64,000 nucleotides of DNA from Candidatus Pacearchaeota archaeon. GTDB lineage: Archaea > Nanobdellota > Nanobdellia > UBA10117 > JAFCGI01. Made by a program: the position numbers and the translations under genes. The notes beneath the pieces were generated by a model that saw only the letters and a program-made list of their open reading frames with translations, was not told where the DNA came from and ran no database searches. The DNA is taken from the NCBI GenBank assembly GCA_017608235.1, contig JAFCGI010000002.1, positions 44,425-108,424 on the forward strand, written 5' to 3'. This document shows positions 4,660 through 54,636 of the stretch, piece by piece. Within the stretch, counting starts at the first letter, position 1, and the number at the start of each line of letters is the position of its first letter.

Positions 4660-4690
4660 TTCACTTCTACTCTACTAACTAAAGAAAATT

Positions 4691-6749: not shown

Positions 6750-6837
6750 TGGACCGGTCGGGATTTGAACCCGAGGCCTCTTGCTTTTTCGACAAAATAT
6801 GCGAAGCAAGCGATCTACCGAACTGATCTACCAGCCC
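6750..6837 (-). tRNA. tRNA-Ala (anticodon CGC) with a 14-nt intron at 37/38
   Basis: Reverse complement folds as acceptor GGGCUGG/CCGGUCC+A with the alanine identity pair G3:U70, D arm GAUC-AGUUCGGUA-GAUC, anticodon stem CUUGC/GCAAG with loop UUCGCA[UAUUUUGUCGAAAA]A, and T arm UCGGG-UUCAAAU-CCCGA. Confidence 0.85.
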
Positions 6838-8692: not shown

Positions 8693-11062
8693 ATGGAAAA
8701 CATCAGCGGAAAGCAGAAATTTGCTTTACGAAAAACAATCAAAGAATTAGAAAACTATCGAGCTAGACATACTGAGCTCGTTTCTGTGTATATTCCTAAA
8801 GGTTATGCTATCATTAAAATTATTCAACAACTTCAGCAAGAACAAGGCACTGCTGAAAACATCAAGTCAAAAACCACTAAGAAAAATGTTATTAGCGCCT
8901 TGGAAAAGATGATTCAGCATCTCAGAATCTATAAAAAAACTCCTGAAAATGGTCTTGCAGTATTTTCAGGAAATGTCTCAGAAAGAGAAGGTGCTCAAGA
9001 CATAAGAGTTTGGGGAATAGAACCTCCAATGCCTCTAAACATACGTATGTATAAATGTGATCAAATATTCTATCTAGATCCACTAAAAGATATGTCCAAA
9101 CCAAAAACTGCATATGGTTTAATTGTAATGGACCGAAGAGAAGGTGACATAGCACTACTAAAAGGCAAAACTATAATCACATTATCAAGATTAAGGTCTG
9201 CTGTTCCTGGAAAATTTCGTGCAGGAGGTCAATGTTTAACTCAAGATTCTCTAGTACAAATGTCTAATGGAGATATAGTACAAATTAAAGATGTTCATAC
9301 AAATCTCAAATCTGCAGACTTTTTAAACTTTAAACACACAGATACAAAAACTATAGATAAATGGAAGACAGAAAAAAACAATATATATAAAATAATTACA
9401 AAAAATCCAAGGAACGAAATTATTTGTTCCAAAGATCACTTATTTTTTGTAAGAGAAGATAAAATCATACAAAAACCTGCTTCCGAATTAACCACTAAAG
9501 ACCATTTAATATTACCAGAAAAATTAGAAATATTTGGTAAAATTCAAAAAATTAAAACCTATTCTAATAAAAAAATAAAAACTCCTAAAATTCTAAACGA
9601 AGAATTAGCACAAATAGTAGGATATTATCTTAGTAAGGGAAATATCGATGATTCAAGAATATATTTTTCAGAAGGAAATAAAGAATTAGCAGAATACTAT
9701 CTCAATATATGCAAAAATCTATTCAGCGCAAATACAAATATAAGATTTAGAGAAAATAAAAAATATTATGAAATCAAAATATATAGCAGACCAATTGAAA
9801 AATTATTTAGAGAACAATTTCCAAAAAAACAAGGCATACCTACTAAAGTATTAAAATCTCCAAATAATGTCGTTGCTTCATTCTTAAAGGGGTTCTTTGA
9901 TGCCGAAGGATATGTTTCTAGCAGCAGAATAGCATTAGGTATAAATAATAAATTATTAGCAAAACAAATTCAACTTTTATTATTAAGATTTAGAATATTA
10001 GCATCACTTCAAGAATATAACAACAAAAGAAATCTGCATAGTAATAATCCTAGATATACTATAGTACTTTGTGGAAAAGAATCTTTCATTGAATTTCAAA
10101 AGAATATTGGTTTTTCCTTAATCAGTAAACAAAACAAATTACTAAACTTAATTAATAATAAAACAAACATTGATTACACAAGACAAATTTTAATCACAGG
10201 AAGAGAAATAAGAAAAATAATCGAAAATCATGGCTTTAAAATACATAAATTATTACCTAAGATTGCTCCAAGCGGTTTCTTTATAAATAAGAAGAACATG
10301 AGCAAACACATATTCAAAAAACAAATTCTTGATAAGGTACAAGAACATAAGCTCTTATATAAAGAACTCAAAAAAATATATAACAATCCATTTATTCCAG
10401 CTAAAATAAGTAAAATAGAAAAATACAATCAAAATACAAAAATGTTTGATATCTCTACAGAATCAGAAAATTTCATAGCAAATGGAATTTTTGTTCATAA
10501 TAGTGCAGCAAGATTCGCAAGAGTCAGAGAAAACCTAGCCAAAGATTTCTACAAAAAAATTGGCGAAGAAGCAAATAAAGAATTTGCAGAAGTAGAAGAA
10601 CTTCAAGGAATAATCATTGGCGGTCCAGGACCAACAAAAGAGGACTTTGCTCATGGAAACTTTCTAAGCACAAATATAAAAAAGAAAATCCTAGGTATAA
10701 AAAATATCTCATATACTGGAGAATTCGGACTAAAAGAGCTTGTAGATAAAAGTGAAGATCTCCTGGAAAAAGAAGATATTATTAAAGAAAAAAAGATTCT
10801 AAATAGACTATTTGAACTTCTAAGCACACAACCAAATCATGTATCTTATGGAAAAGAGGATATTAAAAAAGCCATAAAAATGGGTGCTGTTGACACACTA
10901 ATCATCTCAGAAAAGCTAGAAACCAAAGAAATAGAAGAACTAATTGATACTGCAGAAGAATTCGGTGGGGAAATAGAAATAGTCTCAGATGAAACTAGAG
11001 AAGGTGTCCAGCTATTAAGCATAGGTGGACTAGCAGCTATTCTAAGATATCCTATAACATAA
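8693..11062 (+). CDS. prf1: Peptide chain release factor aRF1, interrupted by an intein
   Basis: NIKS codon-recognition motif (TAENIKSKTTKKN); GGQ at codons 178-180 (nt 9224-9232); GGQ|intein|SAARFARVRE restores the conserved GGQSAxRFxR. The exteins total 366 aa. Confidence 0.9.
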   Translation: MENISGKQKFALRKTIKELENYRARHTELVSVYIPKGYAIIKIIQQLQQEQGTAENIKSKTTKKNVISALEKMIQHLRIYKKTPENGLAVFSGNVSEREGAQDIRVWGIEPPMPLNIRMYKCDQIFYLDPLKDMSKPKTAYGLIVMDRREGDIALLKGKTIITLSRLRSAVPGKFRAGGQCLTQDSLVQMSNGDIVQIKDVHTNLKSADFLNFKHTDTKTIDKWKTEKNNIYKIITKNPRNEIICSKDHLFFVREDKIIQKPASELTTKDHLILPEKLEIFGKIQKIKTYSNKKIKTPKILNEELAQIVGYYLSKGNIDDSRIYFSEGNKELAEYYLNICKNLFSANTNIRFRENKKYYEIKIYSRPIEKLFREQFPKKQGIPTKVLKSPNNVVASFLKGFFDAEGYVSSSRIALGINNKLLAKQIQLLLLRFRILASLQEYNNKRNLHSNNPRYTIVLCGKESFIEFQKNIGFSLISKQNKLLNLINNKTNIDYTRQILITGREIRKIIENHGFKIHKLLPKIAPSGFFINKKNMSKHIFKKQILDKVQEHKLLYKELKKIYNNPFIPAKISKIEKYNQNTKMFDISTESENFIANGIFVHNSAARFARVRENLAKDFYKKIGEEANKEFAEVEELQGIIIGGPGPTKEDFAHGNFLSTNIKKKILGIKNISYTGEFGLKELVDKSEDLLEKEDIIKEKKILNRLFELLSTQPNHVSYGKEDIKKAIKMGAVDTLIISEKLETKEIEELIDTAEEFGGEIEIVSDETREGVQLLSIGGLAAILRYPIT
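9233..10501 (+). mobile_element. Intein (423 codons) with a LAGLIDADG homing-endonuclease domain, inserted after GGQ of aRF1
   Basis: It starts with Cys (CLTQDSLVQM), has a block B-like SKDH and two LAGLIDADG-type motifs (LAQIVGYYLSKGNID; FLKGFFDAEGYVS), and ends ..NGIFVHN followed by the +1 Ser. Confidence 0.85.
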
Positions 11063-12900: not shown

Positions 12901-12922
12901 AAATAAATAAAAAACTTTTGAA

Positions 12923-12997
12923 TGGGCCCGGCAGGATTCGAACCCACGACTCCTCGCTTAAAAGGCGAGTGCTCTAACCAGGCTGAGCTACGAGCCC
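12923..12997 (-). tRNA. tRNA-Lys (anticodon UUU), no intron
   Basis: Reverse complement folds as GGGCUCG-UA-GCUC-AGCCUGGUUA-GAGC-A-CUCGC-CUUUUAA-GCGAG-GAGUC-GUGGG-UUCGAAU-CCUGC-CGGGCCC-A. Confidence 0.9.
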
Positions 12998-13022
12998 ATA
13001 ATTAAAAATCTAAAATTCTGGC

Positions 13023-39919: not shown

Positions 39920-40258
39920 ATGAAATTACTTATAGCTATAGATGAAGATAAAGGAGAAAACTCTAAACTTAGTGAGCACTTTGGGCATTGCCCCTATTTT
40001 GCTATATATAAATCAAACACAAAAGAACTATCAATTATAGAGAATAAATTAGAACATACAAATCCTAATTTATCTCCTGTAGACCAAATTATGAAGTTTG
40101 AGCCAGATATTGTTTTTTCTTTAGGAATGGGGCAGAGGGCGATAAAACTATTTAATAAAAAAGGAGTAAAACTTAAAACAGGCAATTATAAAATTGTAAA
40201 AGAGGTTATTGATAATATTGATAACCTTAAAGAATTAAATGAAGAATGTGATCATTAA
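39920..40258 (+). CDS. NifX/NifB-type 'dinitrogenase iron-molybdenum cofactor' domain protein
   Basis: SEHFGHCPYFAIY... matches the hFGra.yF.i signature of the family; 112 aa. Confidence 0.65.
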   Translation: MKLLIAIDEDKGENSKLSEHFGHCPYFAIYKSNTKELSIIENKLEHTNPNLSPVDQIMKFEPDIVFSLGMGQRAIKLFNKKGVKLKTGNYKIVKEVIDNIDNLKELNEECDH

Positions 40259-40679
40259 AATGCAAAAATTAAAAGAGGCAACTCTTAAAGCAGGAAAAGG
40301 TTTATGGAAAACTTTTCCTATGATATTAGGAACAATATTACTTATTAGTTTAATTACAACTCTAATCCCAAAATCATTTTACACTTCTATATTTCAGAAT
40401 AATATTTTTATAGATTCATTTATAGGAAGTTTAGTTGGGAGTATATCTGCTGGAAATCCTGTAACAAGTTATATTTTTGGAGGCGAACTTTTAGCTCAAG
40501 GTGTTAGTCTATTTGCTGTTACTGCTTTTTTAGTTGCATGGGTTACTGTTGGACTAATACAATTACCTGCAGAATCTGCGATTTTAGGTAAAAAATTTGC
40601 TCTTCTAAGAAACATTACTGCATTTATTTTAGCAATTATCGTAGCAATAATCACAATACTAATTTTAGGAGTATTTTAA
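40239..40679 (+). CDS. Permease half (split two-component permease, subunit 1)
   Basis: 146 aa with 4 hydrophobic segments. It abuts a second membrane ORF, an arrangement like the two-gene permeases often found beside redox-active disulfide proteins. Confidence 0.45.
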   Translation: MKNVIIKMQKLKEATLKAGKGLWKTFPMILGTILLISLITTLIPKSFYTSIFQNNIFIDSFIGSLVGSISAGNPVTSYIFGGELLAQGVSLFAVTAFLVAWVTVGLIQLPAESAILGKKFALLRNITAFILAIIVAIITILILGVF

Positions 40680-40680
40680 T

Positions 40681-41193
40681 ATGAATATAAGAAACAAGTT
40701 AAAACAAATTTCAGGATCTTGGCATTTCTTAATAATTATCTTATTAGTTTATCTCGGATTATATATTTTTAGAAAAGATATATTTTCTTCAAGTATAATA
40801 TTCTTTTATAATATTCTTTTAAAAATAATCCCTATATTTATTCTTGTTTTTGTTTTAATGAGTTTAACTAATTATTTTATAACACCAAAATTTGTAATGA
40901 AGCATTTAGAAGAGAAAGGAGTTAAAAAATGGTTTTTCATTATTATTGGAGGAATTTTATCTACAGGACCAATTTATATGTGGTATCCTCTTTTAGCAGA
41001 CTTAAAAAATAAAGGTTTAAGTTATGGGCTAATTGCATGTTTCTTGTATAATAGAGCAATTAAAATTCCTTTATTGCCAATTGCTATTTTTTATTTTGGA
41101 TGGGAATACATTTTAGTTTTATCTTTTGTTATGATTTTTATATCTATGGTTCAAGGTATATTAATAAATAAATTAATGGATGTTAAAAAATGA
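40681..41193 (+). CDS. Permease half (subunit 2)
   Basis: 170 aa with 5 hydrophobic segments. It starts 2 nt after subunit 1 and overlaps the next gene by 4 nt. Confidence 0.45.
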   Translation: MNIRNKLKQISGSWHFLIIILLVYLGLYIFRKDIFSSSIIFFYNILLKIIPIFILVFVLMSLTNYFITPKFVMKHLEEKGVKKWFFIIIGGILSTGPIYMWYPLLADLKNKGLSYGLIACFLYNRAIKIPLLPIAIFYFGWEYILVLSFVMIFISMVQGILINKLMDVKK

Positions 41194-41492
41194 AAGTTGC
41201 CATAGCATCAGAAGGAAAAGACGAAAATTCAGAAGTAAGTCAAAGAGGTGGAAGGGCTCCTTATTACCTTATTTTTGAGGACAGAAAATTAATAGAATCA
41301 ATAAAAAATCCTTTTGCAACAGGTTCTGGCGGAGCAGGTTTTTCTGTAGCATATATGTTAGCTGACAAAAAAGTTAATTTAGTAATTGCAGGAAAATTTG
41401 GTGGGAATATGGAATCTGCTTTAAAAGAGAAAGGAATTAAATTTAAGGAAGAAAGCAGAAAAAAGGTAAAGGACATTATTAAAGAGATTTAA
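41190..41492 (+). CDS. NifX/NifB-type cofactor-binding domain protein (second copy)
   Basis: MKVAIASEG...GGRAPYYLIFED...AGKFGGNMESALKEKGI; its 3' end overlaps the transposase gene by 14 nt. Confidence 0.65.
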   Translation: MKVAIASEGKDENSEVSQRGGRAPYYLIFEDRKLIESIKNPFATGSGGAGFSVAYMLADKKVNLVIAGKFGGNMESALKEKGIKFKEESRKKVKDIIKEI

Positions 41493-42414
41493 TTCTACTC
41501 AATTGAATTAACTCTAACCATTTATTATTAGAATTTAATTTTAAATTAGGACAAGCCAATTCATATGGAGCTCTGTTTAGAGCTTGGTGCTTCCTAATAA
41601 AATTATAATAAATTTCTAATCCTCTCATTATCGCATTAGCACTTTCCACACTTCCATAAAAACCTCTCATTGTTTTTGTTCTTCCTCTTATTGAATTATG
41701 TAACCTTTCAATCATAATGTTAAAACCTTCTCCTTTAGAGGCATTAACAACATTATGTTCAACCATGTATTTTCCTAACTTGTTGTTATAACCCCAACTT
41801 TTCTTAACAATATTTCCATAAGCAAGAAGTCCGTCTGTTGTGCAGATTTTAACTTGTTCTCCTGTTTTATCTTTAGCTTTCTTAATAACGAGCTTTAATT
41901 CATTCTTCCCTCTTGCTTTTGTATATTCAGAAGAAACTATGAATCTTGGTTTACAATCAACAGCATCAATAAACCAATTTTTATCAACTCCTTTTTTATT
42001 GTGATATTTTCTTCTATGATATTCCATCTCGTCAACTTATAGTTCTTTTCCAACTTGAAGTTTAAGATCATCTGTAAATTTTGAAATTATTTTTGAATAT
42101 TTAATAATCCATTTGTAGATAGATTTATGAGAAGAATTCTCTGGATAAAATGCTTGAAAATGTTCTTGCACTTTTCTAGTTGAAACTCCTCGATAAAATA
42201 GATCTAAAGCACAAGTTATTTTATTTGGATGATTTCTCATTCTGAAAAAGCCACCGTCATTAGTAAATCTATATTCACAATCTTTACATTTGTATCTTTG
42301 AATTAATCCTCTATTCTGTGTTTTTCTTCTTCCATTCTTTTTGATATTCTTACTTTTACAACTAGGACAGCAAAGTTTTTTATACTTCTTTTCTTTTATA
42401 TTGTTAGGTTTCAT
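41479..42414 (-). pseudogene. IS transposase gene (DDE, IS6/IS240-like with an N-terminal zinc finger) interrupted by one in-frame TAA
   Basis: The two track ORFs (42037-42414 and 41479-42027) are in the same frame, separated only by TAA + GTT GAC GAG: ..LQVGKEL*VDEMEYHRRK... Zn finger CCPSCKS...CKDCEY; DDE-type motifs ..TTDGLLAYGN.. and ERLHNSIRGRTKTMRGF...YYNFIRKHQAL. Confidence 0.7.
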
Positions 42415-42736: not shown

Positions 42737-42864
42737 TTTTTTATCTTTCTTAGCGCCCTTTAAGGTAACAATGAACTATACTCACAAAATTTAAAAACAA
42801 ACAAAACGAAAGCCTTTTATTTATTTACCATCGTAGAATCATAAACTTATCGGAGGTTATATAC

Positions 42865-43131
42865 ATGGCAGCAAGAAAAAAAACAAAAAAGAAAACAGCA
42901 AAAAAAGTAGAAGATGATGATTTAGATTTTGAAGATGATGAAGATGAAGGCTTCACAAAAGATAAAATAATGAAATACTTCAAAGGTGTAATCGGACTGT
43001 TAGTATGTTTAATCGGTCTTTATGGCACAATAATCTTCTGGAATCCTTTTATGCAATTATTAAAAGGTATGATAGGTCCATTCATAATATTAATAGGACT
43101 AATAATTCTATTAATAGCTTGGACAGATTAA
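42865..43131 (+). CDS. Small membrane protein with a lysine-rich then acidic N-terminal leader
   Basis: MAARKKTKKKTAKKVEDDDLDFEDDEDEG followed by two hydrophobic segments; GGAGGT lies 8 nt before the ATG. Confidence 0.45.
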   Translation: MAARKKTKKKTAKKVEDDDLDFEDDEDEGFTKDKIMKYFKGVIGLLVCLIGLYGTIIFWNPFMQLLKGMIGPFIILIGLIILLIAWTD

Positions 43132-43133
43132 TT

Positions 43134-46100
43134 TTATTTTTTATTTTTTTTAGTAATTTTTTTCTTTCTTGTAATTCCTATAAATAAAACTGCAACTAGA
43201 ATAACAATCACTATGCTTACAAACGATAATAGATTAAGATCAAACAAACTAATAAACCCATCAAGAGTTTCTTCAGTTTCCTCTCCACCCAATATTAGTT
43301 TTTTATCAAGCTTAGGCAATACTACTAACTTTGTGGAATTAATTAAATCATCAGACACTTCTTTATTCACAGTATAAATTATTTCTTTATCAACTAAATC
43401 AGAAAAGCTCCATCTTACAACAGGATCATCCTTTACAATTTCATAATCTGCTGTCCTAAAGGTAATTTCACCAGCAGTGCTAGCAATATCTTTTGGTATT
43501 GTCTCCACTATATAGAGCTCTTCAGAAGAATCTAAACTGATAGTCTTCTTAAACATAGTTATTTTTCCTGTGTTTCCAGAAAGATATTTAACATCCAAAA
43601 CCTTAGTATTTACATCTACACTAACTTTATCTTTAAGCCTTGCAGCTTCAGAAACATAATTTTGTTTTTCAGAATCATCTAAACCATCTTTAACTACAAT
43701 ACTTTCAATAGATGCATCTATATCACTATCTTTCACACTCTGCGTAAATTCATCTGTAGAAATAATTTCTGCTTCAACAATTGTAGACTTCTTAATTTCT
43801 GTTAGTCTATTTTGTAACTTAGTAAATTCAAGTTCCTTTTTTGTATCAGAAATGCTTGAACCCTTCAAAGCTTTAAGCGCTGATTCAATAGATGCTATAT
43901 TAGTTTTAGTAAACTTAAGATCACCTTCTATATTCAAATCAGCAACTAAGTTTTTATCAATACTAGATACCTTAGTTAAATACTTATCTATATCATCTCC
44001 CAGATATTCAACACTAGTTATTTCATCATCAATTTCTTCTGTAACCGAAGAATCAGTAGTAGTTGTGCTAGGCGTAACAACTACATCATCCTCTGCAGTA
44101 GTAGTGGTGGTAGTACCTCCGCCACTATTACTAGACTCTTCCTCAATAGTTAGAGTAAAGGTTTCTGAATCAGTAGCACCATGATTATCCTGAACAGTTA
44201 TAGTTATAGAATAACTTCCCTCATCTGAACTATCAGGAGTAAACTCAATATTACCATTACCAGAATTTATATTAAACAAATTAGTATTATCTGAAAATGT
44301 TAAAGTATCTCCAGTAGGATCTGGATCAGTAGCACTAACATCTAAACTAAATTCTTCATTAACAGTTGCAGTTTGAGAACTAATACTACTTATTATAGGA
44401 GGATCATTCGTGTTATTAACATCTATATTCAAGTTCTTACTAACACTATTATAACCATCACTAACTGTAATATTAATAGTATTATTCCCCACATAATCAT
44501 TAGTAGGAGTCCAATTCAATAGCCCAGTACTTGAATTAATAATTCCTGAAATATTAGCACTATAAGTTAAGGTATCTGCATCATCATCACTAGCATTAAT
44601 ATCATACACTATAGCAGAATCCTCATTAACTGTCAGATTATCAAATGCATGACTAAAACTTGGTAGCCAAGGATCAACTACAATCAAAGTCCAAGATACT
44701 GAATCATTAAGACTTCCATCTGAAACTATCAATGTAACATTACGAGTTCCACCATTATGCAAACCAACATCATAAGTTAAATTTTGTTCTGTAGAATTAA
44801 GTTCACCCTCAAAATACCAATTATACAACAAAGTAACATTATCCACATCACTTGCACTTGCATTAAAGAATATTGTATTATTCTCTGTCAGATAAATGGT
44901 TTGATTCGTAGTACTGTTTATTGTAGAATTATCCCAATACCAAGAATCAATTACAGGCGCATCATTAGTATTTTCTATAGTAATAACAAATACCTCACTA
45001 ATATTCACATTACCATCTGTAATATTAATTCTAACTCCCAAACTTCCTACATCATCATTAGTTGGTGTCCAAGTAATAACTCCATTCGAACTAATATTAA
45101 ATTCTGAAACATTATCTAAAAATGTAATATTATCTCCATCAAGATCAGTAACATCTATATCATATGTAAACTCTTGATCTTCTATAGCAGTCTGATCTTG
45201 CAAAGCTGGATTAAAGAAAGGTGCATTATTTGGATCTGTTGAATTTAAAGTAATATCTCTTGTACTAGAAACTCCTAATTTTCCTTCTGTTCTATTTCCA
45301 ATAATTCTATATGTAAAATCTCCAGAAACATCTGTCTTATTAATATACCAATTTTTTAAACTAGAGTTACTCATACTTATATTAGTAGTGCCATCCCATT
45401 CTAACCAAGCTTCTCTTAGATCCCGATCACTCGTAATATTAACAAAAATCCAAGTAGTATTCAATTTACTTTTGTGTGAGGGTGTAGGACTAACAATCAT
45501 AATCTCTGGAGCAAATAAACCAAGAGTGGTTGCATTATCACTAGTCTGATTCAAATTTCCAGCATCATCTGCAGATTTCAAAGTTAAATTATATTCTGTA
45601 TCTGCACTAAGTCCTGTTGCATTATAATAACTAATATTACTTGTTAAATTAACCTTAAATACACTATTCAACCAAACCTCTGTATGATCAAAATCAGTTT
45701 CTGAAGGATTAGTCCAATTCCAATAAATCCAAGTTTCATCTTTTGAGAGTTCTGCTAAACCAGCAGCAGCTGAAGTAGGAGTATCATCTAAAAACTTTAT
45801 TGCTGCCAGAATATCTATTCTCGGAAATACTAGACTATTTTTAGAATCTGTAACATTAACACCTTTATTCTTAAGAACAGTTCTAATCTCTCCAGGGTCT
45901 ATAGTCACGCCTTCTAACCTCTCATGCTGGAAAATAAGTGCTGCAGCTCCTCCAACAAATGGAGCAGCCATAGAAGTTCCACTTCCAGACAAATATCCAG
46001 AACTATGACAATTAGTACATGATCCTGTTGGAACTGTTGAAACAACCTTGCATCCTGGTGCTAATAAATCTAAAATCTCATCACTATTTACAAAATTAGG

Positions 46101-47153
46101 TATATTATCTTCAGTAGTACCTTCAGAACCATCATCAACTGCACCAACAGAAGTAACATTAGCAAGACAGGCTGGATAACTTATACCATCATCAAAACCA
46201 CTATTACCAGATGAAGCCACAACAAAAATACCTGCAGCAGTTGCATTATTTATTGCGCTTGTTGTAGCAGAATATGTGCTTGCAGGACAACTAGAAAGAT
46301 TATGTTCTCCACTATCTCCTAAACTCATTACTATAACAGAAATATTAAACTTACTTGCATTATTCACACACCAATCTATTCCAGATGCTATATTTGAAAA
46401 ATCACCTCTTCCACTAGCATTAAGTGCTTTAATTGCTACAATCTTAGCATCAAATGCTATTCCTTTGTTATTACCAGATATTCCATTTCCAGCTGCAATC
46501 CCTGCAACATGAGTTCCATGTCCATCATCATCAAAAGGATTTGCATCTGGAGTTGTGCATCCTCCTCCATCACTTCCACAAAAATCATAACCACTTATAA
46601 CTTTAGAACAGTTACCAGCCAGAAATTCCTCTTCTGTACAAGAACCAAATTCAGTATGCGTATAGTCAATTCCACTATCTATAACACAAATAGTTTCTCC
46701 TGCCCCAGTAATATTTAAACCCTGAAGATTTCTAAGCCATACATCATCAGCATTAATTAGAGAATTTGCTTCTGCTCTATGAGCTACAGCAATCCCTGGT
46801 TTATATATTCTTAATACATTAGGATCATTAGCTAATTTAGCTAGTCCTTGCGCGCTAACTTTTCCACTAATAGCTTCTACATTAGAAAATTTATACTTTA
46901 ATTCAAAATCTTCTTCCATAAGATCTGAAAGAACATTCTCCTGCTTAACAGCAATAGATGTACTTGCTTCCGAACCACTAGATCCTGATCTTGTTCCACT
47001 AGTATCTTCCTTAAGCATAATAATAACATCTACCTTAGAATTCTTATCTAAATCCTCAAAAACATTATCATCTATACTTGCTGCTATCACTACTTGCAAG
47101 CTCACTAATAAAAAAACACTCATTAATATTAATAGTGTTATTCTCTTACTCAT
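43134..47153 (-). CDS. Membrane-anchored multidomain subtilisin-like serine protease (S8) with FN3, cadherin-like and PKD adhesion modules
   Basis: Signal peptide, I9-like propeptide, and catalytic triad D159 (VIDSGIDYTH), H212 (HGTHVAG) and S394 (SGTSMAAP). These are followed by an FN3-like module, three clear cadherin-like repeats (..ITWTPTNDDVG..NTNDAPVI) plus one degenerate segment, a PKD-like module, a poly-Thr linker, a C-terminal module, a TM helix and a KKKITKKNKK tail. Confidence 0.85.
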   Translation of the reverse strand: MSKRITLLILMSVFLLVSLQVVIAASIDDNVFEDLDKNSKVDVIIMLKEDTSGTRSGSSGSEASTSIAVKQENVLSDLMEEDFELKYKFSNVEAISGKVSAQGLAKLANDPNVLRIYKPGIAVAHRAEANSLINADDVWLRNLQGLNITGAGETICVIDSGIDYTHTEFGSCTEEEFLAGNCSKVISGYDFCGSDGGGCTTPDANPFDDDGHGTHVAGIAAGNGISGNNKGIAFDAKIVAIKALNASGRGDFSNIASGIDWCVNNASKFNISVIVMSLGDSGEHNLSSCPASTYSATTSAINNATAAGIFVVASSGNSGFDDGISYPACLANVTSVGAVDDGSEGTTEDNIPNFVNSDEILDLLAPGCKVVSTVPTGSCTNCHSSGYLSGSGTSMAAPFVGGAAALIFQHERLEGVTIDPGEIRTVLKNKGVNVTDSKNSLVFPRIDILAAIKFLDDTPTSAAAGLAELSKDETWIYWNWTNPSETDFDHTEVWLNSVFKVNLTSNISYYNATGLSADTEYNLTLKSADDAGNLNQTSDNATTLGLFAPEIMIVSPTPSHKSKLNTTWIFVNITSDRDLREAWLEWDGTTNISMSNSSLKNWYINKTDVSGDFTYRIIGNRTEGKLGVSSTRDITLNSTDPNNAPFFNPALQDQTAIEDQEFTYDIDVTDLDGDNITFLDNVSEFNISSNGVITWTPTNDDVGSLGVRINITDGNVNISEVFVITIENTNDAPVIDSWYWDNSTINSTTNQTIYLTENNTIFFNASASDVDNVTLLYNWYFEGELNSTEQNLTYDVGLHNGGTRNVTLIVSDGSLNDSVSWTLIVVDPWLPSFSHAFDNLTVNEDSAIVYDINASDDDADTLTYSANISGIINSSTGLLNWTPTNDYVGNNTINITVSDGYNSVSKNLNIDVNNTNDPPIISSISSQTATVNEEFSLDVSATDPDPTGDTLTFSDNTNLFNINSGNGNIEFTPDSSDEGSYSITITVQDNHGATDSETFTLTIEEESSNSGGGTTTTTTAEDDVVVTPSTTTTDSSVTEEIDDEITSVEYLGDDIDKYLTKVSSIDKNLVADLNIEGDLKFTKTNIASIESALKALKGSSISDTKKELEFTKLQNRLTEIKKSTIVEAEIISTDEFTQSVKDSDIDASIESIVVKDGLDDSEKQNYVSEAARLKDKVSVDVNTKVLDVKYLSGNTGKITMFKKTISLDSSEELYIVETIPKDIASTAGEITFRTADYEIVKDDPVVRWSFSDLVDKEIIYTVNKEVSDDLINSTKLVVLPKLDKKLILGGEETEETLDGFISLFDLNLLSFVSIVIVILVAVLFIGITRKKKITKKNKK

Positions 47154-47170
47154 TTTTTCCTTTTTTTCAA

Positions 47171-47467
47171 TTATTCAGCAAAAACTGCAGCACATTGGTT
47201 ATTCACACATTTACAACTACCATAGCCACAATCTAAAGTGCCAGGTTCACAAATCTGGGTACATGCAACACCAACACAATCTGGTTTATTCTCTATGCTT
47301 ATACATGCAGTAGCATGACAGCAAGAATCTTGCACACAATCAGAATCTGCTTCACAATACAAAGTATCCCTAAACATATCCTTATTTGCATAAGTTGTTG
47401 CAAAGATTATAATAATAGCAAATATTGCTATAAACACTAATACAAACATATTAGATTCTTCATCCAT
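47171..47467 (-). CDS. Anchored 12-cysteine mini-protein
   Basis: N-terminal TM helix (FVLVFIAIFAIIIIFATTYA) followed by 12 Cys within ~57 residues (YCEADSDCVQDSCCHATACISIENKPDCVGVACTQICEPGTLDCGYGSCKCVNNQC). Confidence 0.5.
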   Translation of the reverse strand: MDEESNMFVLVFIAIFAIIIIFATTYANKDMFRDTLYCEADSDCVQDSCCHATACISIENKPDCVGVACTQICEPGTLDCGYGSCKCVNNQCAAVFAE

Positions 47468-47570
47468 TCTTGCTAATTAATCTACAATTCTTATTTAAAA
47501 TAATTTTGATTATCTTAAAATAACTGATCCAAATAAGAAAATAAGAAAAACAATCAAAAATAATATCTGA

Positions 47571-48902
47571 CTATAGATCCTTCCGCTCCTTTTCTTTCTT
47601 CGCCTTACTCTTTCTTCTCACAAAAGAAATCACTATGTAAATAAACAATAACATAAGGATTATACTAATCAAAAATCCAAGACTTATTGCTTTAAATTCA
47701 GTTAAACAATCACCTGGGCAATTTGCATTATTTTCTCCACTCTCACAAACCTTATTACCACAAAATGGCCCTTCTCTAACTGCTTTGTTATCTACTATAG
47801 TATTAGACTCTATCTTATCTATTTCCTTTTTAACAATATAGCTTACTTCAGCAGTAGATCCTTCAGCTAAATTAGCGATATACCATCTTACAATAGGATC
47901 TGCTTGAATTACTTCTGGCTGAATTCCTGGAAATGCAAGTTCTGCTATGCTCGCTGCAACACTTTTTGGAATTACTTCTACAATCTCAACATCCTTCATA
48001 TTTTCTTGAGCAGTAACCACAATTCTTATCTCAGAAACTTTATTTATAGCACCTGTATCTTTACTCTTAACTTCATACACATTCAAATCTGTTTTAATAT
48101 TAACCTCTCCAGATTCTCCTGATGTGATAGCATCTCTGATTTTCTCAAATATCTCTATTGTATTATCATCAGTTACTGAATTAAGCGCATCATCAATATT
48201 TCCTATGGTTACTGTTGTTTCCTTACTTAATTCACCAATCTTAGTAACTTCTACATCTTCAGGAGTTATCTCTTCCATGCCTATAGACCTAGGATCAACA
48301 CCTGCAATAATATCCTCTACCTTATCTTCATCTGTAATAATTTCTTGCTTTGGTTGAATAACCTCTTCCTCTGGCTCTTCAGTTTCATCAATAGGAGCTG
48401 TGCCAGTTGGTGTTGTTACTTCTTCACTACCACCGCCACCACCATTTTCTTCCTCACATGCAGAATCTGTACTATGAGTTTCTCCAGATTCACAGATACC
48501 ATTTCCATTAATCGCAGTCCCTGAAGCTACCAGCAAATCTACTTCAGATATGCCTCCAGGCCTCCAAGTAACACTGCTTGGAGTAGTAGTAGCTAAAGCA
48601 CCTCCAACATAAAACAATATAGCCTTACCTTCATCATCTGATACTGAACTAACAATCAACTTCTGAGTATCAGGATCTGAACCTCCACCATATGCCCCAT
48701 CACTAGTCATAGTAAAACTAGCTTTCTGCTGTCCAGATATTTCAGCAGTTATCTCCACACCACTAGGAACATCACTGGTTCCATGCAGTACAGTTCCATA
48801 AAAAGCATGAGGTAAGACTGGAGGAGAATCAGCATAGACTCCTACTAAAATTATTGAGAACATTAATGAAACAAAGATCATCAAACCAAACAACTTTTTC
48901 AT
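47571..48902 (-). CDS. Anchored surface protein sharing a C-terminal module with the subtilase
   Basis: Signal peptide, an N-terminal beta-rich domain, two C-x-SGE...C motifs, an acidic linker, the module IVEVIPKSVAASIAELAFPGIQPEVIQADPIVRW..., a TM helix and a basic tail. Confidence 0.6.
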   Translation of the reverse strand: MKKLFGLMIFVSLMFSIILVGVYADSPPVLPHAFYGTVLHGTSDVPSGVEITAEISGQQKASFTMTSDGAYGGGSDPDTQKLIVSSVSDDEGKAILFYVGGALATTTPSSVTWRPGGISEVDLLVASGTAINGNGICESGETHSTDSACEEENGGGGGSEEVTTPTGTAPIDETEEPEEEVIQPKQEIITDEDKVEDIIAGVDPRSIGMEEITPEDVEVTKIGELSKETTVTIGNIDDALNSVTDDNTIEIFEKIRDAITSGESGEVNIKTDLNVYEVKSKDTGAINKVSEIRIVVTAQENMKDVEIVEVIPKSVAASIAELAFPGIQPEVIQADPIVRWYIANLAEGSTAEVSYIVKKEIDKIESNTIVDNKAVREGPFCGNKVCESGENNANCPGDCLTEFKAISLGFLISIILMLLFIYIVISFVRRKSKAKKEKERKDL

Positions 48903-48949
48903 TTTACCATCCCTTCTTCTAAATTTCCTTTTCCTTTAAAACAATTTAG

Positions 48950-48984
48950 ATAATAAAAAATACAAAAACAAGGGCTAAGCCCCC
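48950..48984 (-). terminator. Hairpin plus T-run after the giant-protein gene
   Basis: The minus strand reads GGGGCTTAGCCC followed by TTGTTTTTGTATTTTTTATTATCT, starting 13 nt after the stop at 48997. Confidence 0.4.
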
Positions 48985-48996
48985 GAATTTATTTAT

Positions 48997-51900
48997 CTAA
49001 TCACACCTTTGTCCAGTTAGTGTATCTGCTCTTTCCATTAGTACCCAATATCCTTCATACTCATCCATATTACTTCCAGAATCATCTTCATACTTGCTAG
49101 ATGCTTCTAAGTAATAATTTGCATTTGGAGGACTTGGACTCAATATCTTAGACAATCCCTTATAATCATTAGATTCTCCAGATACAACTTCAAGATCATC
49201 TAATGCAGTAGTCCATTTAGTACTAATATTTTCATTTAAACTTACTAAATTCCATCCACTTGTTAGACTTCTTGAAGGATATACACAATTTGGTCCTGGT
49301 GTAGCCTTCTTATAGAAGAATGCAAGCTCATCTGCTTCTGTTATATTTATGTAAATAGCTTCCAATGGATCTAATGTATAATTACTTGTTACCTGTACCC
49401 ATCCATTATCATATGTATACGCAATAGACCAATTCAACCCATCATAATATGCTATTACATCTGACCAAGTACTATTATCAAGCACTCTTGGCGTAGAAAT
49501 TAAATTCCATCCACTACTTAAATCTATATGCTCATCTGGTGCTCCTGTTGAAGTTACTGCTGCTGTTCCCACAGCATTACCTGCATAATCATAGAATTTA
49601 TTAGTTTGCGCACCTAGTGTTGCACTAAATGTTGCAAATCCATCTAAAGTATATACTAAAGTATCATTCGCACTAACTGTTGGATTTCCTGCAACTATTG
49701 ATGCACTACCACCAGCTCCATCAGTATAACTTACAAAGGTTTCATTTATAGTATTTCCAGCAGTTCCAGATCCATCTGAATTATATGTTTTAGTTCCAGA
49801 ATGCACTATATTCTCATTGAAAACCACCGTAACCAAGGTTCCATTTATTGTTACACTAGTTATATTTGGTCCAGTAATATCTATAGTTTGTGAATCTGCA
49901 TTTGTTACATTAGCATCTGTTGGTCCATCATTATTTGATGCTACAAAAACTCCTTCTTCTCCAGCATCATAATCTCCATCGCTGTCCGAATCTATCAAAA
50001 TTGGAATTTGGAACCTTAGAGTTGCACCATCAGTAACACCTGCACCAGTATCTACTGAAACAAATATTCTTAATCCAGATGCAGGAATTGCTTCTGATAG
50101 ACCAGTCCATATCCATCCATTTATTGATGCATCATATGATCCAGTTCCAGCACCTAATGCTGAATCATCTGATCCTGGTTCAAAAACACCATCACCATCA
50201 TCCACCCATGCTTTAACAGTCAATTCAGAACGATCTTGGTCGCCTATATTTTTTACAATAAATACATTCAGCTCATCTTCTGCTTTATCTGTTACATTTA
50301 CATTTGCACCAACATCATTATAGATATCTTCACTGCTATCAAACGTATCATCTTCACTATCATCTACATATTTATAGGTAGTAGGGAAATCACATAAAGT
50401 AGTTCCTGCAGAGATACTATCTCCACCATTTACAACTACAGTATCTGCAATATCTGAGTATGTTAACTCACCTACATGATTTTCTAAAATAATATCTTCT
50501 CCAGTATTCCAATCAGAATTTGTATTTACATCATAGAATACAAGATTTGTGGTATTATCTAATAATGTAATTGTATCTCCTGCACTCATACCACTACAAT
50601 CTACATCTAAACTATCTGCGTCTAGTTTAGTATCTGCTGCAGCACTCCATGTAAACTCTCCAGCATAATTCTCTGTAATAATATCTTCTCCATTATCCCA
50701 TTCATTATTTGAATTTTCATCATTATATACTAAATTTCCAGTACCATCTAATAAAGCTAAAGTTGCTCCATTACTTATTGCACCACCTTCATCTAATATT
50801 TTAGTATCCGCAGTTCCATCAGAATATGTTAAGCCTCCATCAACAACTTCTTTACAAACATCATTAGTTGCAACAAATACTCCAGTACTTGTATGTACTA
50901 ATGGACCATCTGCATTGTTTGCAGTTGTCCAATCTCCATCAAGATCTGCACTACCTGATAAAAATATCGTATCTGTTGACTCTAAAGTAGTGTCTGCATC
51001 TCCAGATGTTTCCTGAATTATTGCTTCTCCAGTTGAATAATCTCCATCATTATTATCATCTGAAAAAGCAAGTCTTCTATCATTACTGCTTGATCCTGCA
51101 GTAAAGTCTAATAGATCACAAGTTCCTGATGTTTCTACTGTATCTCCTGTATTTAATTGTCCAGCAGTTCCACTAACAATTATTGCTTCTGTATTATCAT
51201 ATGCATCATCATGATCGTTGTCACAATATACTGCACTACTATTTAATAAAACTGCATCAATAACATCCCAATCCCCTGTTGCTTTTTGTAATCCTTGTGC
51301 AGTTATTGGAACATTTGCATCATTTGCTAAAGAATTTCCATCTCCCAAATCAATTAGGATTTCATAATCAGTATATGAGCTATCATGATCTCCATCCAAA
51401 TATCCTACTTCAGCATCATTTTGTATTCCTAGACCTGAATCTCCTGCATTCAAAGCACCAGTTCCATCTACTAAAACTTCATCTGCCCCAGCAGAATATG
51501 TGCTACTGCCAGCTGTTTCTTCAATATATAAATCTTCTCCATTATCTAAAAGTCCATCTGCATCAGAATCTACAAAAGCCCATTTATTTGTAACTTTAGT
51601 AGTAGCAGCTGCACTTCCTAACAAATATGTACCATCATTACCACCGTTATCTGTACAATCTTGATTAAGATCTACTCTTATTGCAGTAGGATTACTTAAA
51701 TCATCAGTACATAAATACACTCCATCTGCTGCATCATTATCATCCCAATCAACTTTATTATCTCCCATGGAAACTAAAGCATCCCCTTCACTATGAGAAT
51801 CACAAGTACCTTTATTTGTACTTGTTGAACCATCACAATCTGCTTCTGCATCTGCTGCAGAAGTATATACACCATCTTCATCATCATCTATAAAAATATC

Positions 51901-53223
51901 ATCTGTTCCAGCATCATATTCATTACCGCCGTCAGAATCATCAAACAATATATCGTCTCCTGCTACAAAGTTTTGGAAATCTCCGTCTCCAGATTTTATT
52001 ATTGCACCATTTGAGCTATTCATAATCAGCTCACCATCATCATATGCTCCATTGTTGCTTGACCCACTTTCTATAGCAGCTATTTCATTCGCAAATACTT
52101 TTGTGTCTGCCTCTCCGCTTTTAACAATTTCTCCATCATCCAAGTTACTATCAGAAGAAATAATTATTGATTCTTCCACATCATATGTATCTATACTATG
52201 TGAGTTATGTGTATCAGAATATTTATGATCTGATTGACTAAAAAAGCTAACTAAATCTGCATTCCCATTTACTAACACAGTATCCCAATCATCTAAAGTT
52301 CCATTTGTAGAGTTTATTATTGCTTCTCCAGAATCATACTGGGAATCATGATCATCATCTATCCAATAAATATTTGTAAAGTCAGCACTTAATGCATCTC
52401 CATGGCTTGGAGAATCTGCACCATTATAATAAGAACAATCATCTGCACTTGCAGGCGTATATTTAGAATCATTATCCAAATCTAGAACAATTGCTTCTCC
52501 AGTAGCATACGCTTGATCTCCACCTTCAAGAGAAAGTGTTGGATATGTACTAGTTGGAGCTAAAGGATTTAAAACATCACCAGCAGATTTTGAATCATCT
52601 GCTCCTGGAGAACCAGATGCAGCAGTTGCAGTACCATCTGCATCTACAACTGTATCTGCAGCGCTAGTCCAAACATCATCTCCATCATCATCTATTAAAA
52701 TACAATCTGAATTAACAAATGTTGTATCTGCTCCATTTATAGCAATTCTTTGAGATGGATTCACTGGGAATATATTTAATGCATCTCCAGCACTATATGT
52801 ATCTGAAGACCCACCAGTATATAATACATTATCTGAAGCACTAGTATATACTCCATCATTATCATCATCTACTATAATATCTGAATTTCCTTCTACATAT
52901 CCTGCAGAACAATTACCATCTTGTCTAGCAAACGCCTCTGCATGAATATTACCTAAAGATAAAAATGAAATTAAATCATCCCCAGTCCAAGAGGAAGTAG
53001 CTCCATTATGTATAAGAACATCTGCAGCAGCGCTGCCTGTAGCATTAGGCAATACAATATTTAATACAATTTTATTTGTTTTACTTGCCCCGATAGTATA
53101 TGCACTAACATCTTCTTTAACAACATTTGAAGCCTGAAAAGCAAAAACAAAATTTCCAGAAAAAGCTAAAACCAAAACCATTAATATAGCTATTATAATT
53201 TTTTTGTTTGAAATATCAAACAC
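48997..53223 (-). CDS. Giant secreted acidic repeat protein with many EF-hand/dockerin-like DxDxD...E loops
   Basis: Signal peptide (M)FDISNKKIIIAILMVLVLAFSGNFVFAFQA. At least 9 twelve-residue loops have D/N at positions 1, 3 and 5, an aromatic residue at 8 and Glu at 12 (for example DDDHDSQYDSGE, DNDHDDAYDNTE, DSDSDGDYDAGE), and 4 further loops are of the DDDxDGxYTSA(S/A)D type. There is no C-terminal TM helix. The only start is a GTG inside GGAGGTG. Confidence 0.7.
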   Translation of the reverse strand: MFDISNKKIIIAILMVLVLAFSGNFVFAFQASNVVKEDVSAYTIGASKTNKIVLNIVLPNATGSAAADVLIHNGATSSWTGDDLISFLSLGNIHAEAFARQDGNCSAGYVEGNSDIIVDDDNDGVYTSASDNVLYTGGSSDTYSAGDALNIFPVNPSQRIAINGADTTFVNSDCILIDDDGDDVWTSAADTVVDADGTATAASGSPGADDSKSAGDVLNPLAPTSTYPTLSLEGGDQAYATGEAIVLDLDNDSKYTPASADDCSYYNGADSPSHGDALSADFTNIYWIDDDHDSQYDSGEAIINSTNGTLDDWDTVLVNGNADLVSFFSQSDHKYSDTHNSHSIDTYDVEESIIISSDSNLDDGEIVKSGEADTKVFANEIAAIESGSSNNGAYDDGELIMNSSNGAIIKSGDGDFQNFVAGDDILFDDSDGGNEYDAGTDDIFIDDDEDGVYTSAADAEADCDGSTSTNKGTCDSHSEGDALVSMGDNKVDWDDNDAADGVYLCTDDLSNPTAIRVDLNQDCTDNGGNDGTYLLGSAAATTKVTNKWAFVDSDADGLLDNGEDLYIEETAGSSTYSAGADEVLVDGTGALNAGDSGLGIQNDAEVGYLDGDHDSSYTDYEILIDLGDGNSLANDANVPITAQGLQKATGDWDVIDAVLLNSSAVYCDNDHDDAYDNTEAIIVSGTAGQLNTGDTVETSGTCDLLDFTAGSSSNDRRLAFSDDNNDGDYSTGEAIIQETSGDADTTLESTDTIFLSGSADLDGDWTTANNADGPLVHTSTGVFVATNDVCKEVVDGGLTYSDGTADTKILDEGGAISNGATLALLDGTGNLVYNDENSNNEWDNGEDIITENYAGEFTWSAAADTKLDADSLDVDCSGMSAGDTITLLDNTTNLVFYDVNTNSDWNTGEDIILENHVGELTYSDIADTVVVNGGDSISAGTTLCDFPTTYKYVDDSEDDTFDSSEDIYNDVGANVNVTDKAEDELNVFIVKNIGDQDRSELTVKAWVDDGDGVFEPGSDDSALGAGTGSYDASINGWIWTGLSEAIPASGLRIFVSVDTGAGVTDGATLRFQIPILIDSDSDGDYDAGEEGVFVASNNDGPTDANVTNADSQTIDITGPNITSVTINGTLVTVVFNENIVHSGTKTYNSDGSGTAGNTINETFVSYTDGAGGSASIVAGNPTVSANDTLVYTLDGFATFSATLGAQTNKFYDYAGNAVGTAAVTSTGAPDEHIDLSSGWNLISTPRVLDNSTWSDVIAYYDGLNWSIAYTYDNGWVQVTSNYTLDPLEAIYINITEADELAFFYKKATPGPNCVYPSRSLTSGWNLVSLNENISTKWTTALDDLEVVSGESNDYKGLSKILSPSPPNANYYLEASSKYEDDSGSNMDEYEGYWVLMERADTLTGQRCD

Positions 53224-53391
53224 CTCCTTTTCAACGCTATCTAAGTTACGTTAGTTTTTTCCAAGAAACAGATATATATAAAGATTATTAGTCACTAATA
53301 AATAAGGAAGCAAATAGAGACTCTAGACTATATTTCCAACAATTAATAAAAATTAATAAAAAAATTAATAAAAAAAACAAATAAAATCAAA

Positions 53392-54636
53392 ATGGTAAGT
53401 ACTGCTAAACTCTGTTTAATCTGTAAAGGCTCCCGGAATTTATGTGGTAATAACCCCTGCCCTCTAATGATCAAATATAAGATAAAACCTATGATCCAAG
53501 AACAACTTAGTAAAGAATATTTTGGACCTTCAACCTCTGTCTTCGTAGGCTATTATAATTATCCAAATGTGTTTGTTGGACCAATGGCCTCTCTTGACAC
53601 AGAAAATTTAAAACAAATAGAATCTCCAAATTCCTGGATTTCAAAATCCTATGCTGAAATAATTAAACTTAGATCCACACTGCTAAGATCTAAATACAAA
53701 CAAAATATTTTCTCTAGATCTAGATTTATAGAAGAAAACCAACTTCTAGCTCTTGCTAAAAAGCCAACAGATACAGAACTTAACTTCTTAAGAAAACCAG
53801 TCTTCAAAGCTTCCTTCTCAGACATGACTCAACCACATGGTCCCTCAGCCACACTAAAAAATCTAAGAATCACAGAGAACATTAAAATTTCAAGAAAAGT
53901 TGAAAACATAGTTTTTGATGAATTAAAATCTGCAGACCAAGCTAATCTTCTATACAAAAAAGGCCAAGACATCTACAAAATAACCACAATCCTAAGCTCT
54001 GGAACTCTTGGTTTAACAAGAAACAAAAAGCTAGTTCCAACTCGATGGAGCATAACCGCTGTTGATGATATCTTAACCAAAAAAATGCTTCAAGATATAA
54101 GATACTTCTCAGAAATTTCTGAATACTATGTCTTTGAATCCCAGCACCTTGACAACCATTTTCTTATACTTATGCTTCCTGGAAAGTTTGAATATGAAAA
54201 CTTTGAAGCTTGGGCTCCTGGCTCTACTTGGTATGATCCTGCTCTCGAAATTCTACCAGAAGCAGCTAAAAAGAAAATGACTCAGCCAGTCATCCTAAAA
54301 GAATATGAACCCTTCCAGGGAAGAAAGAAATACGCAGAACTAGAAGGCGGAGGCTACTATGCAGCAAGAATTGCTTGCATCGAACACTTACATAAGATAC
54401 ACAGACAAGCCAGAGTAATAGTTTTCAGAGAGGTCTATGAGGGTTATAATATTCCTTTAGGAGTTTGGGTTGTAAGAGAAACTGCTAGACAGGCTTTCAA
54501 ACATAAGCCTCAAAAATTCCCCTCACTCAATCAAGCTCTAACATATATTAATTCAAAACTCCGCCTGCCCATAGAGAAATACAAAAAGCAAAGCACAATC
54601 CTAAAACAAAAAAGATTGTTTGACTTTCTCAAATAA
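53392..54636 (+). CDS. nreA: Nre-family DNA repair protein (NreA-like)
   Basis: N-terminal Cys cluster CLICKGSRNLCGNNPCPL is typical of archaeal Nre proteins; 414 aa. Confidence 0.7.
   Translation: MVSTAKLCLICKGSRNLCGNNPCPLMIKYKIKPMIQEQLSKEYFGPSTSVFVGYYNYPNVFVGPMASLDTENLKQIESPNSWISKSYAEIIKLRSTLLRSKYKQNIFSRSRFIEENQLLALAKKPTDTELNFLRKPVFKASFSDMTQPHGPSATLKNLRITENIKISRKVENIVFDELKSADQANLLYKKGQDIYKITTILSSGTLGLTRNKKLVPTRWSITAVDDILTKKMLQDIRYFSEISEYYVFESQHLDNHFLILMLPGKFEYENFEAWAPGSTWYDPALEILPEAAKKKMTQPVILKEYEPFQGRKKYAELEGGGYYAARIACIEHLHKIHRQARVIVFREVYEGYNIPLGVWVVRETARQAFKHKPQKFPSLNQALTYINSKLRLPIEKYKKQSTILKQKRLFDFLK

Follow-up and report, generated by a model that had tools for sequence, protein, structure and literature searches.

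What do four consecutive genes for exported proteins, all on one strand and together taking up 15.8% of the sequence analysed, build on the surface of an archaeon? The locus lies on the minus strand of a 64,000-nucleotide (nt) stretch of contig JAFCGI010000002.1 from a Candidatus Pacearchaeota archaeon, which is referred to here as the window, and all gene coordinates below follow the numbering of this 64-kb window. From upstream to downstream the genes encode a giant protein of 1408 amino acids (aa) that starts with GTG and is secreted, unanchored and acidic (48997..53223), a type-I membrane protein of 443 aa (47571..48902; hereafter the anchor), a putatively membrane-tethered protein of 98 aa with 12 Cys residues (47171..47467; hereafter cys98) and a membrane-anchored, multidomain S8 subtilase of 1339 aa (43134..47153), with spacers of 94, 103 and 17 nt between them. 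Open reading frame (ORF) calls and hydrophobicity profiles agreed on these points, as well as on the C-terminal anchors of the 443-aa protein and the protease and on a share of ~16% of the window, with the original prediction, which had gone on to see in the four genes a single host-attachment or invasion apparatus. We favour another answer, to which we give a probability of about 0.55: the locus would be part of the cell envelope of a DPANN archaeon and combine a surface-layer (S-layer) pair of the SlaA/SlaB kind, with the giant as candidate outer canopy and the anchor as its candidate stalk, and an envelope proteinase with its partner, the two pairs being neighbours by chance. The locus is then no new kind of system; two-component surface layers and envelope proteinases are known, and it would be a variant of them that annotation has so far covered poorly.

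The giant protein and its probable membrane anchor

The first three proteins offered few footholds in databases, since no Pfam or NCBIfam model matched the giant, the anchor or cys98, a PDB sequence search returned no solved structure for any of them, and isolated sub-domains compared with Pfam at E <= 10 gave nothing significant. The giant nevertheless has telling features of its own. With an isoelectric point (pI) of 4.05, 14% Asp and 3% Lys plus Arg, its composition is S-layer-like, and its only hydrophobic segment is N-terminal, with no C-terminal helix. An iterated repeat hidden Markov model (HMM) delimited ~15 repeats of ~58 aa at residues 110-1116 (49876..52896, minus strand), each of which places an EF-hand-like, Asp-rich loop of 12 residues between hydrophobic strands. 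The exact 12-residue calcium-type pattern D-x-[DN]-x-[DNS]-x-x-[YWFL]-x-x-x-[DE] occurs eight times, against 0.36 expected from shuffled sequences (maximum 4 in 2000 shuffles), and looser loops of this type occur 13 times against 2.0 expected. These counts bear out the calcium-loop character originally ascribed to the protein, and its repeats are probably stabilised by calcium. A search of the PDB with the repeat profile found no relative, and AlphaFold returned no usable model for residues 209-1408 from a six-row alignment (mean predicted local distance difference test score, pLDDT, of 36.7).

Five homologues of the giant were found among 5.8 billion proteins, namely two bacterial proteins with SLH domains (P0002 and P0003), two proteins from Patescibacteria (40-45% identity) and P0004. 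Both SLH-bearing proteins, of 1579 and 1671 aa, are acidic and secreted, and their true homology to the giant includes its signal peptide, its first domain and the repeats, with 37-44% of residues identical over a stretch of ~490 (giant residues 214-705); one of them sits in a bacterial gene context. Their C-terminal ends consist of three SLH domains, which bind the cell-wall polymer, whereas the giant carries at this place a tandem 'GWNL...GYW' domain (hereafter the GW domain; residues 1233-1403, 49015..49527, minus strand, delimited by HMM), the proposed docking end, and is paired with a membrane-anchor gene. Because these homologues share the repeats and end in SLH domains, the exposed repeat array belongs to a class that in bacteria is attached to the cell wall by SLH. 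P0004 (2060 aa) is built like the giant and, as judged by eye, has the same tandem domain at its C-terminus, and a C-terminal membrane helix is absent from every one of the homologues. As the original prediction had argued, the giant cannot remain on the cell without a partner, a role for which the 443-aa protein is the strongest candidate. The same prediction had named one outcome that would speak against it, that the giant should prove to be an ordinary S-layer protein, and this is in part what we found. The giant looks to be of S-layer type, as indicated by its SLH-bearing homologues and by L006_5, the positional equivalent beside one of the two closest full-length anchor homologues, which partially matches the profile of Kustd1514-type S-layer glycoproteins (NF052345; 66 bits, E = 1e-18, against a cut-off of 1400); the window giant itself gave no match to this profile.

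The anchor is composed, in order, of a signal peptide, an N-terminal beta-rich domain, a Cys motif, an acidic linker, a module, a further Cys motif, a membrane helix (residues 399-430) and a basic tail. Its module, with the membrane helix and tail, covers residues 185-441 (47580..48350, minus strand; delimited by profile and AlphaFold), and a second copy, again with a membrane helix and here with a basic tail of 12 residues, ends the S8 protease (residues 1104-1338, 43140..43844, minus strand; BLASTP and profile). The sharing of this module by the two anchored proteins, noticed at the outset, was confirmed by BLASTP (E = 4e-11; 166 aligned residues, 26% identical), and the 64-kb window contains no further copy. 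A profile built from the C-terminal 250 residues of the anchor collected 1486 clusters at 50% identity, in which the module stands mostly at the C-terminus of proteins of 330-500 aa, while some members end much larger proteins, including the window protease (P0029). The passengers are of many different domain types, and no Pfam or NCBIfam model matches the module itself. Because it occurs in 1486 clusters under so many kinds of passenger, the module appears to be a general anchor or stalk cassette and is unlikely to be a specific docking site for the giant, as had been suggested; it would, on the other hand, let surface proteins be recognised in DPANN genomes.

In the AlphaFold model, the module (residues 181-370, pLDDT values of 69-95) folds into a helix-containing beta-sandwich, after which comes the membrane helix; residues 19-178 lie outside this model, which has only short helices before the membrane helix. 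Foldseek comparison of the model with the PDB gave only weak, generic beta-sandwich matches (query-normalised TM-scores <= 0.16), and the best Pfam match of the N-terminal domain, CarboxypepD_reg, was weak (E = 0.017). Close homologues of the anchor are few (P0008-P0010). PGF-pre-PGF (TIGR04213), an anchoring region of surface proteins, takes a similar place to the module, in front of the C-terminal helix of short proteins encoded after giants (L002_1, L054_1 and L082_1) and at the end of the S8 protease L022_4. We rejected the module as a relative of PGF-pre-PGF, given an hhalign probability of 0.3% and no NCBIfam match in the window proteins. The Cys motif, G-x-x-x-C-E-S-G-E-x(4-7)-C, is present twice in the anchor (residues 133-150 and 381-399) and also in L004_1 and L006_6, with a comparable C-x-x-G-E-N-x-x-N-C-P-x-D-C in L046_1, and may characterise such surface proteins as a small site for disulfides or for metal.

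A scan for the module in one genome per species yielded 32 loci, all but two labelled DPANN or uncultured/unclassified archaea; the lineages named were Aenigmatarchaeota, Woesearchaeota, Nanohaloarchaea, Nanoarchaeia, Undinarchaeales and Iainarchaeum. Genes in these relatives were simple longest-ORF calls, and an upstream protein was counted as large at >= 750 aa, or at >= 500 aa where the contig cuts its 5' end. A large, secreted and unanchored protein was encoded directly upstream, on the same strand, of 13 of the 19 complete short module proteins (14 with the contig-edge locus L004), at gaps of -23 to +121 nt, whereas such proteins make up only ~6% of the ORFs in the module loci. This pairing of giant and anchor spans Aenigmatarchaeota, Woesearchaeota, Nanohaloarchaea and Nanoarchaeia, and between lineages most of the giants cannot be aligned. 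When the GW-domain HMM was run on all loci fetched, it matched only the window giant, L006_5, L022_0 and L004_0, and in the last three the domain forms the very C-terminal end of a secreted protein of large size, encoded directly upstream of a homologue of the 443-aa anchor. It is the sole part of the giant that is conserved in archaea. Three anchors (L004_1, L006_6 and L011_5) have the N-terminal domain type of the window anchor, and the giants before the first two carry the GW domain; the C-terminus of the giant before the third is similar by eye only and is not an HMM match. As far as sequence comparison can tell, the conserved, lineage-matched parts are the GW domain of the giant and the N-terminal domain of the anchor, not the module. 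Large module proteins examined in a Rosetta-stone test share only single Ig-like (immunoglobulin-like) segments with unanchored giants, which lends the pairing weak support. Because the closest relatives of both the anchor and the GW domain are of that type, the archaeon itself is probably of woesearchaeal affinity.

In five of these loci, a 229-230-aa ORF always lies 3' of the anchor gene on the same strand (L005, at 4430-5119, L007_4, L012_9, L014_2 and L015_7). All five are of Aenigmatarchaeota type, three being labelled Aenigmatarchaeota and two uncultured archaeon, and the ORF of L005 is a KaiC/RecA-like ATPase according to Pfam.

The arrangement of the first two genes resembles that of SlaA and SlaB in the Sulfolobales, where a large secreted unanchored protein is likewise followed on the same strand by a protein of ~450 aa with a signal peptide and a C-terminal membrane helix, which holds it. 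In this kind of arrangement, rapid evolution of the outer protein contrasts with slow evolution of the stalk. Sizes are also close, SlaA and SlaB of S. acidocaldarius having ~1400 and 475 aa, respectively, and the model of M. javensis SlaA reaching residue 1345 or beyond. Pfam, NCBIfam and PDB searches revealed no sequence similarity between the two systems, and the Foldseek matches of the anchor were weak. SlaA/SlaB, moreover, has a trimeric coiled-coil stalk, whereas the anchor model, from which residues 19-178 are absent, has only short helices, and the window giant, whose lattice is putative, is made of Asp-rich calcium-type loops instead of glycosylated Ig domains. For DPANN, proteins with roles like those of SlaA and SlaB have been suggested, but their genes are not adjacent (10.1101/2023.10.27.564410).

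The cysteine-rich protein and the subtilase

The third gene encodes a protein in which a hydrophobic N-terminal segment (residues 3-29) serves either as an anchor or as a cleavable signal peptide, and which has the 12 Cys originally counted in it. Its family is defined by the motif C-x2-DSDCVP-x2-CCHA ... PGTLDCG, with 16 invariant positions. A metagenome scan revealed at least 535 relatives, from which 80 loci were kept, 68 with a callable gene and 58 with a downstream ORF. Archaeal members have an N-terminal helix and bacterial members have lipoprotein-type signal peptides, some being fused to DUF333, so that the membrane tether of the family appears to be kept by different means. In 24 of the 58 loci a gene for an S8 subtilase with a signal peptide follows cys98 immediately on the same strand, mostly at gaps of -4 to +7 nt and often with overlapping codons; S8 genes are otherwise almost absent from cys98 loci. 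The partner proteases, where complete, also end in a C-terminal helix, and one of them was confirmed by Pfam. Because the flanking genes, which are archaeal housekeeping genes, vary from locus to locus, cys98 and the S8 gene form a conserved unit. Six pairs (L044, L055, L062, L063, L078 and L115) are preceded by the same housekeeping neighbours, in L063 a class I tRNA synthetase, a TrmB-type regulator and a TatD nuclease, and probably represent one lineage. One bacterial member of the cys98 family adjoins an S8 gene in convergent orientation. Small Cys-rich proteins that occupy the position of cys98 in L019 and L022 were considered and rejected as members, as they are not homologous to it.

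These partner proteases are the nearest relatives of the window protease (residues 22-729, 34% identity). It has a signal peptide and a C-terminal helix at residues 1299-1331, after which only the basic tail of 12 residues follows (TRKKKITKKNKK). Its subtilase catalytic domain (residues 150-431, 45861..46706, minus strand) was identified by Pfam PF00082 with E = 7e-41 and 140.9 bits against a cut-off of 21.8, the triad motifs DSG-159, HGTH-212 and GTSMA-392 are intact, and the closest solved structure is that of Tk-SP (3afg, E = 6e-34). Three Ig-like repeats of the Big_9/He_PIG/Cadherin_5/PKD_4 types follow at ~residues 640-1003 (44145..45236, minus strand; Pfam). Thus, of the modules originally assigned to the protease, the cadherin-like and PKD types are present, while Pfam detected no FN3 domain.

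Two known systems combine elements of this pair. Lactococcal PrtP is a multidomain, C-terminally anchored S8 enzyme for peptide nutrition whose gene lies beside that of a small membrane-tethered partner, although PrtP is anchored by sortase and the window protease by a membrane helix. That partner, PrtM, is the maturation lipoprotein that PrtP needs and a PrsA-like foldase, whereas cys98 has a 12-Cys domain of ~60 residues with no known relatives. By analogy with PrtM/PrtP and with small disulfide-rich inhibitors of subtilisins, we infer that cys98 may be a tethered regulator of the protease, acting either as an inhibitor or as a maturation factor. The other system is the tetrabrachion of Staphylothermus marinus with its STABLE protease, which Mayr et al. 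reportedly described in 1996 in Curr Biol. There too, a subtilisin-family protease is said to be fixed in the surface layer of an archaeon that feeds on peptides. Compared by description only, STABLE binds the S-layer stalk non-covalently, whereas the window protease has its own membrane helix and stalk module. With SlaA/SlaB-type pairs and with S-layer-bound or envelope subtilases already known (cell-envelope proteinases are reviewed in PMC10535647), the statement that the locus had no described equivalent went too far. We found no literature description of either gene pair, within a coverage that was incomplete, and novelty is thus not proven.

A likeness to the giant SPEARE proteins of Nanohaloarchaeota had also been proposed. 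It extends to a DPANN surface protein that joins a serine protease with adhesion-type domains and has a membrane helix near its C-terminus. SPEARE proteins, however, are of 3,300-8,500 aa, all contain laminin-G, and have as their most conserved part a cytoplasmic type III restriction-enzyme region (PMC6642349). The window protease, at 1339 aa, shares neither of these defining features, since its helix is followed by the 12-residue tail only, no restriction-endonuclease model of Pfam matched and no laminin-G domain was found by Pfam at E <= 0.1. As a possible link to SPEARE we considered P0100, a module-bearing protein of 5848 aa, and rejected it because only low-complexity Lys/Arg/Glu sequence and hydrophobic helices follow its module.

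Surface layer, invasion machine or adhesin

Gene structures, topology signals, homologies and conserved pairings together suggest how a surface layer with an envelope proteinase could be assembled. The giant would be exported by Sec without an anchor of its own and would present, as its bulk, the ~15 Asp-rich repeats of the kind exposed on SLH-anchored bacterial surface proteins. Its GW domain would replace SLH and dock on the N-terminal domain of the anchor, which would stand on the membrane by means of the widespread DPANN stalk module, the membrane helix and the basic tail. The protease would be a subtilase that is anchored at its C-terminus, spaced by Ig-like repeats and set on a further copy of the stalk module; it would be co-expressed with cys98, which may control it as a tethered inhibitor or maturation factor. 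Most likely it would digest external or host proteins for an auxotrophic cell, and it may also trim envelope proteins.

A central issue is whether the two pairs belong together. Directly 3' of the giant gene, a hairpin (48985-48969, 7 bp with five G-C pairs) is followed by TTTTTGTATT and by T-runs to 48951 (48951..48985, minus strand); it is the sole intergenic terminator-like site in 42800-53500 and likely a transcription stop, maybe a partial one. The original prediction placed a hairpin plus T-run after the first gene only, which holds for the hairpin; T-runs without a hairpin are also present 3' of the anchor gene. A terminator-like hairpin between giant and anchor fits the production of more canopy than stalk. 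In relatives the pairs mostly occur apart, with L006 and the Aenigmatarchaeota loci having giant and anchor only and most cys98-S8 pairs standing alone. With the first two genes split by hairpin and T-runs and the pairs separate in most relatives, the single operon originally envisaged is doubtful. The synteny check proposed with it gave a divided result. Both pairs are conserved, and the order of giant with GW domain, module anchor, small Cys-rich protein and S8 protease recurs in full in L022, while L054 and L082 show it in part, with an anchor of the PGF-pre-PGF type. Because the full gene order recurs, a loose functional link is plausible; as in Staphylothermus, for example, the protease might sit within the layer or act upon it.

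This recurrence also speaks for a dedicated four-gene machine for host attachment or invasion, in which the giant would be handed to the host or displayed on it and be held by the two module proteins, and the protease would mature the giant or breach the host envelope. Cultivated DPANN all live as ectosymbionts, and it has been suggested that host S-layers are attacked by surface proteases (10.1101/2023.10.27.564410); in addition, lineages, and indeed domains of life, have exchanged the exposed part of the giant, as expected if it faces the host. Against this stand the separation of the pairs in most relatives, where no S8 gene is present in L006 or in the Aenigmatarchaeota loci and most cys98-S8 pairs lie amid housekeeping genes, the generic nature of the module, which is an anchor and not a specific dock, and the SLH domains of the bacterial giant homologues. 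A surface layer can itself mediate attachment, so that this explanation overlaps with the one that we prefer. We regard such a machine as unlikely, although it is the best of the alternatives, and the simpler explanation is an envelope of S-layer type that includes a protease at the surface.

Still less probable, in our estimate, is that giant and anchor form a two-partner adhesin or fibre, a calcium-stiffened stalk on a membrane base present in few copies per cell, with the protease pair being unrelated and used for feeding. Calcium-loop repeats are typical of extended adhesins. The giant has 19 N-glycosylation sequons against 19.8 expected, a chance-level density, whereas giants at the same position in other DPANN have 54-131. 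Finally, two Aenigmatarchaeota loci (L002, 3-11128, and L007, 1-10699) carry two consecutive cassettes of giant plus anchor, the first anchor being of the PGF-pre-PGF type and the second of the module type, so not every such pair can be the single lattice protein. The SLH-type homologues and the Kustd1514 family match of L006_5, however, point to layers, and the pairing is conserved across phyla. The remaining alternative, that four unrelated surface genes became neighbours fortuitously or through an insertion close to a mobile element, can draw on an insertion sequence (IS)-like transposase pair just downstream of the locus (41479-42414), on the seemingly horizontal acquisition of the repeat region (44% identity to a bacterial protein) and on the terminator-like signals between genes, but is highly improbable given that the first pair (13-14 of 19 against a 6% background) and the second (24 of 58, in loci otherwise almost free of S8 genes) both recur far above chance.

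The preferred reading, a surface layer plus an envelope proteinase, also has several observations to contend with. The layer is predicted from gene sequences, and the proposed docking of the GW domain on the anchor goes back to no more than four loci in which both occur. A long coiled coil of the SlaB kind is absent from the anchor model, the chance-level sequons mark the window giant as an atypical member, and its SLH-bearing homologues could be S-layer-associated proteins instead of lattice formers. Another S-layer candidate may lie beyond the 64-kb window. With regard to the protease, 34 of the 58 cys98 loci have no adjacent S8 gene, and the small Cys-rich protein of L022 falls outside the cys98 family.

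No S-layer protein of a DPANN archaeon had yet been determined according to a 2023 preprint on Nanobdella aerobiophila (10.1101/2023.10.27.564410), and the DPANN surface is where all host contact occurs. The recurrence of the giant-anchor pair in four DPANN lineages provides concrete candidates for canopy and stalk. Likewise, cys98 and its subtilase would represent a new relationship between a protease and a partner, in a family with at least 535 metagenomic relatives. The 44% identity of the giant to an SLH-bearing bacterial protein and the 40-45% identity to Patescibacteria suggest that building blocks of the envelope have been exchanged between domains. Tentatively, many DPANN might even share an envelope kit, consisting of a conserved stalk (with the module or PGF-pre-PGF), a separately encoded giant canopy docked on it and cys98 gating an anchored subtilase; the exposed part of the canopy would be open to exchange, and in the window giant it is a calcium-loop array that SLH-anchored bacterial proteins and Patescibacteria have as well. 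If this broader proposal were true, it would name the long-sought S-layer components of DPANN and reveal a new class of protease partner.

Transcription signals and other genes of the window

The window is archaeal, as judged from genes for Nre, PolX, TFB and an archaeal-type RNase J and from intron-bearing tRNAs, and has a G+C content of ~31%. At this composition, a TATA-box-like sequence read ~54 nt 5' of the start of the giant gene (TTTATATATAT, 53272..53282, minus strand) is weak evidence for a promoter. A Shine-Dalgarno-like GGAGGTG (53223-53229, minus strand) includes the annotated GTG of the giant, and an in-frame ATT lies downstream of it at a typical spacing; because of this overlap the start codon is uncertain by a few codons. 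A scan for sigma-70 promoters was discarded as irrelevant to an archaeon, its matches being in any case below the shuffle expectation.

The IS-like pair downstream of the locus, which is also on the minus strand, consists of an InsA-type zinc-ribbon ORF (125 aa) and a DDE transposase fragment (182 aa, DDE_Tnp_IS240). Elsewhere in the window, an aRF1/eRF1 gene (8693-11062, plus strand) contains an intein with a LAGLIDADG homing-endonuclease domain, the Intein_splicing match covering residues 195-603 between eRF1 domains 1 and 2. Two tRNA genes of 111 and 88 nt (2073-2183 and 6750-6837, minus strand) were found by Rfam and missed by ARAGORN, and are presumably intron-bearing; the tRNA-Lys gene at 12922-12998 is the only one found by both. 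Two abutting ORFs on the plus strand (40239-40679 and 40681-41193; 146 and 170 aa) each align with the ArsP_1 permease profile in its N-terminal half and may represent a split, duplicated or frameshifted transporter gene. Lastly, the gene for a 437-aa protein of the CARDB/NPCBM_assoc type (4691-6004, minus strand) lies beside two MacB/FtsX-type ABC permease genes (2225-4659) and forms with them another surface-associated cluster.

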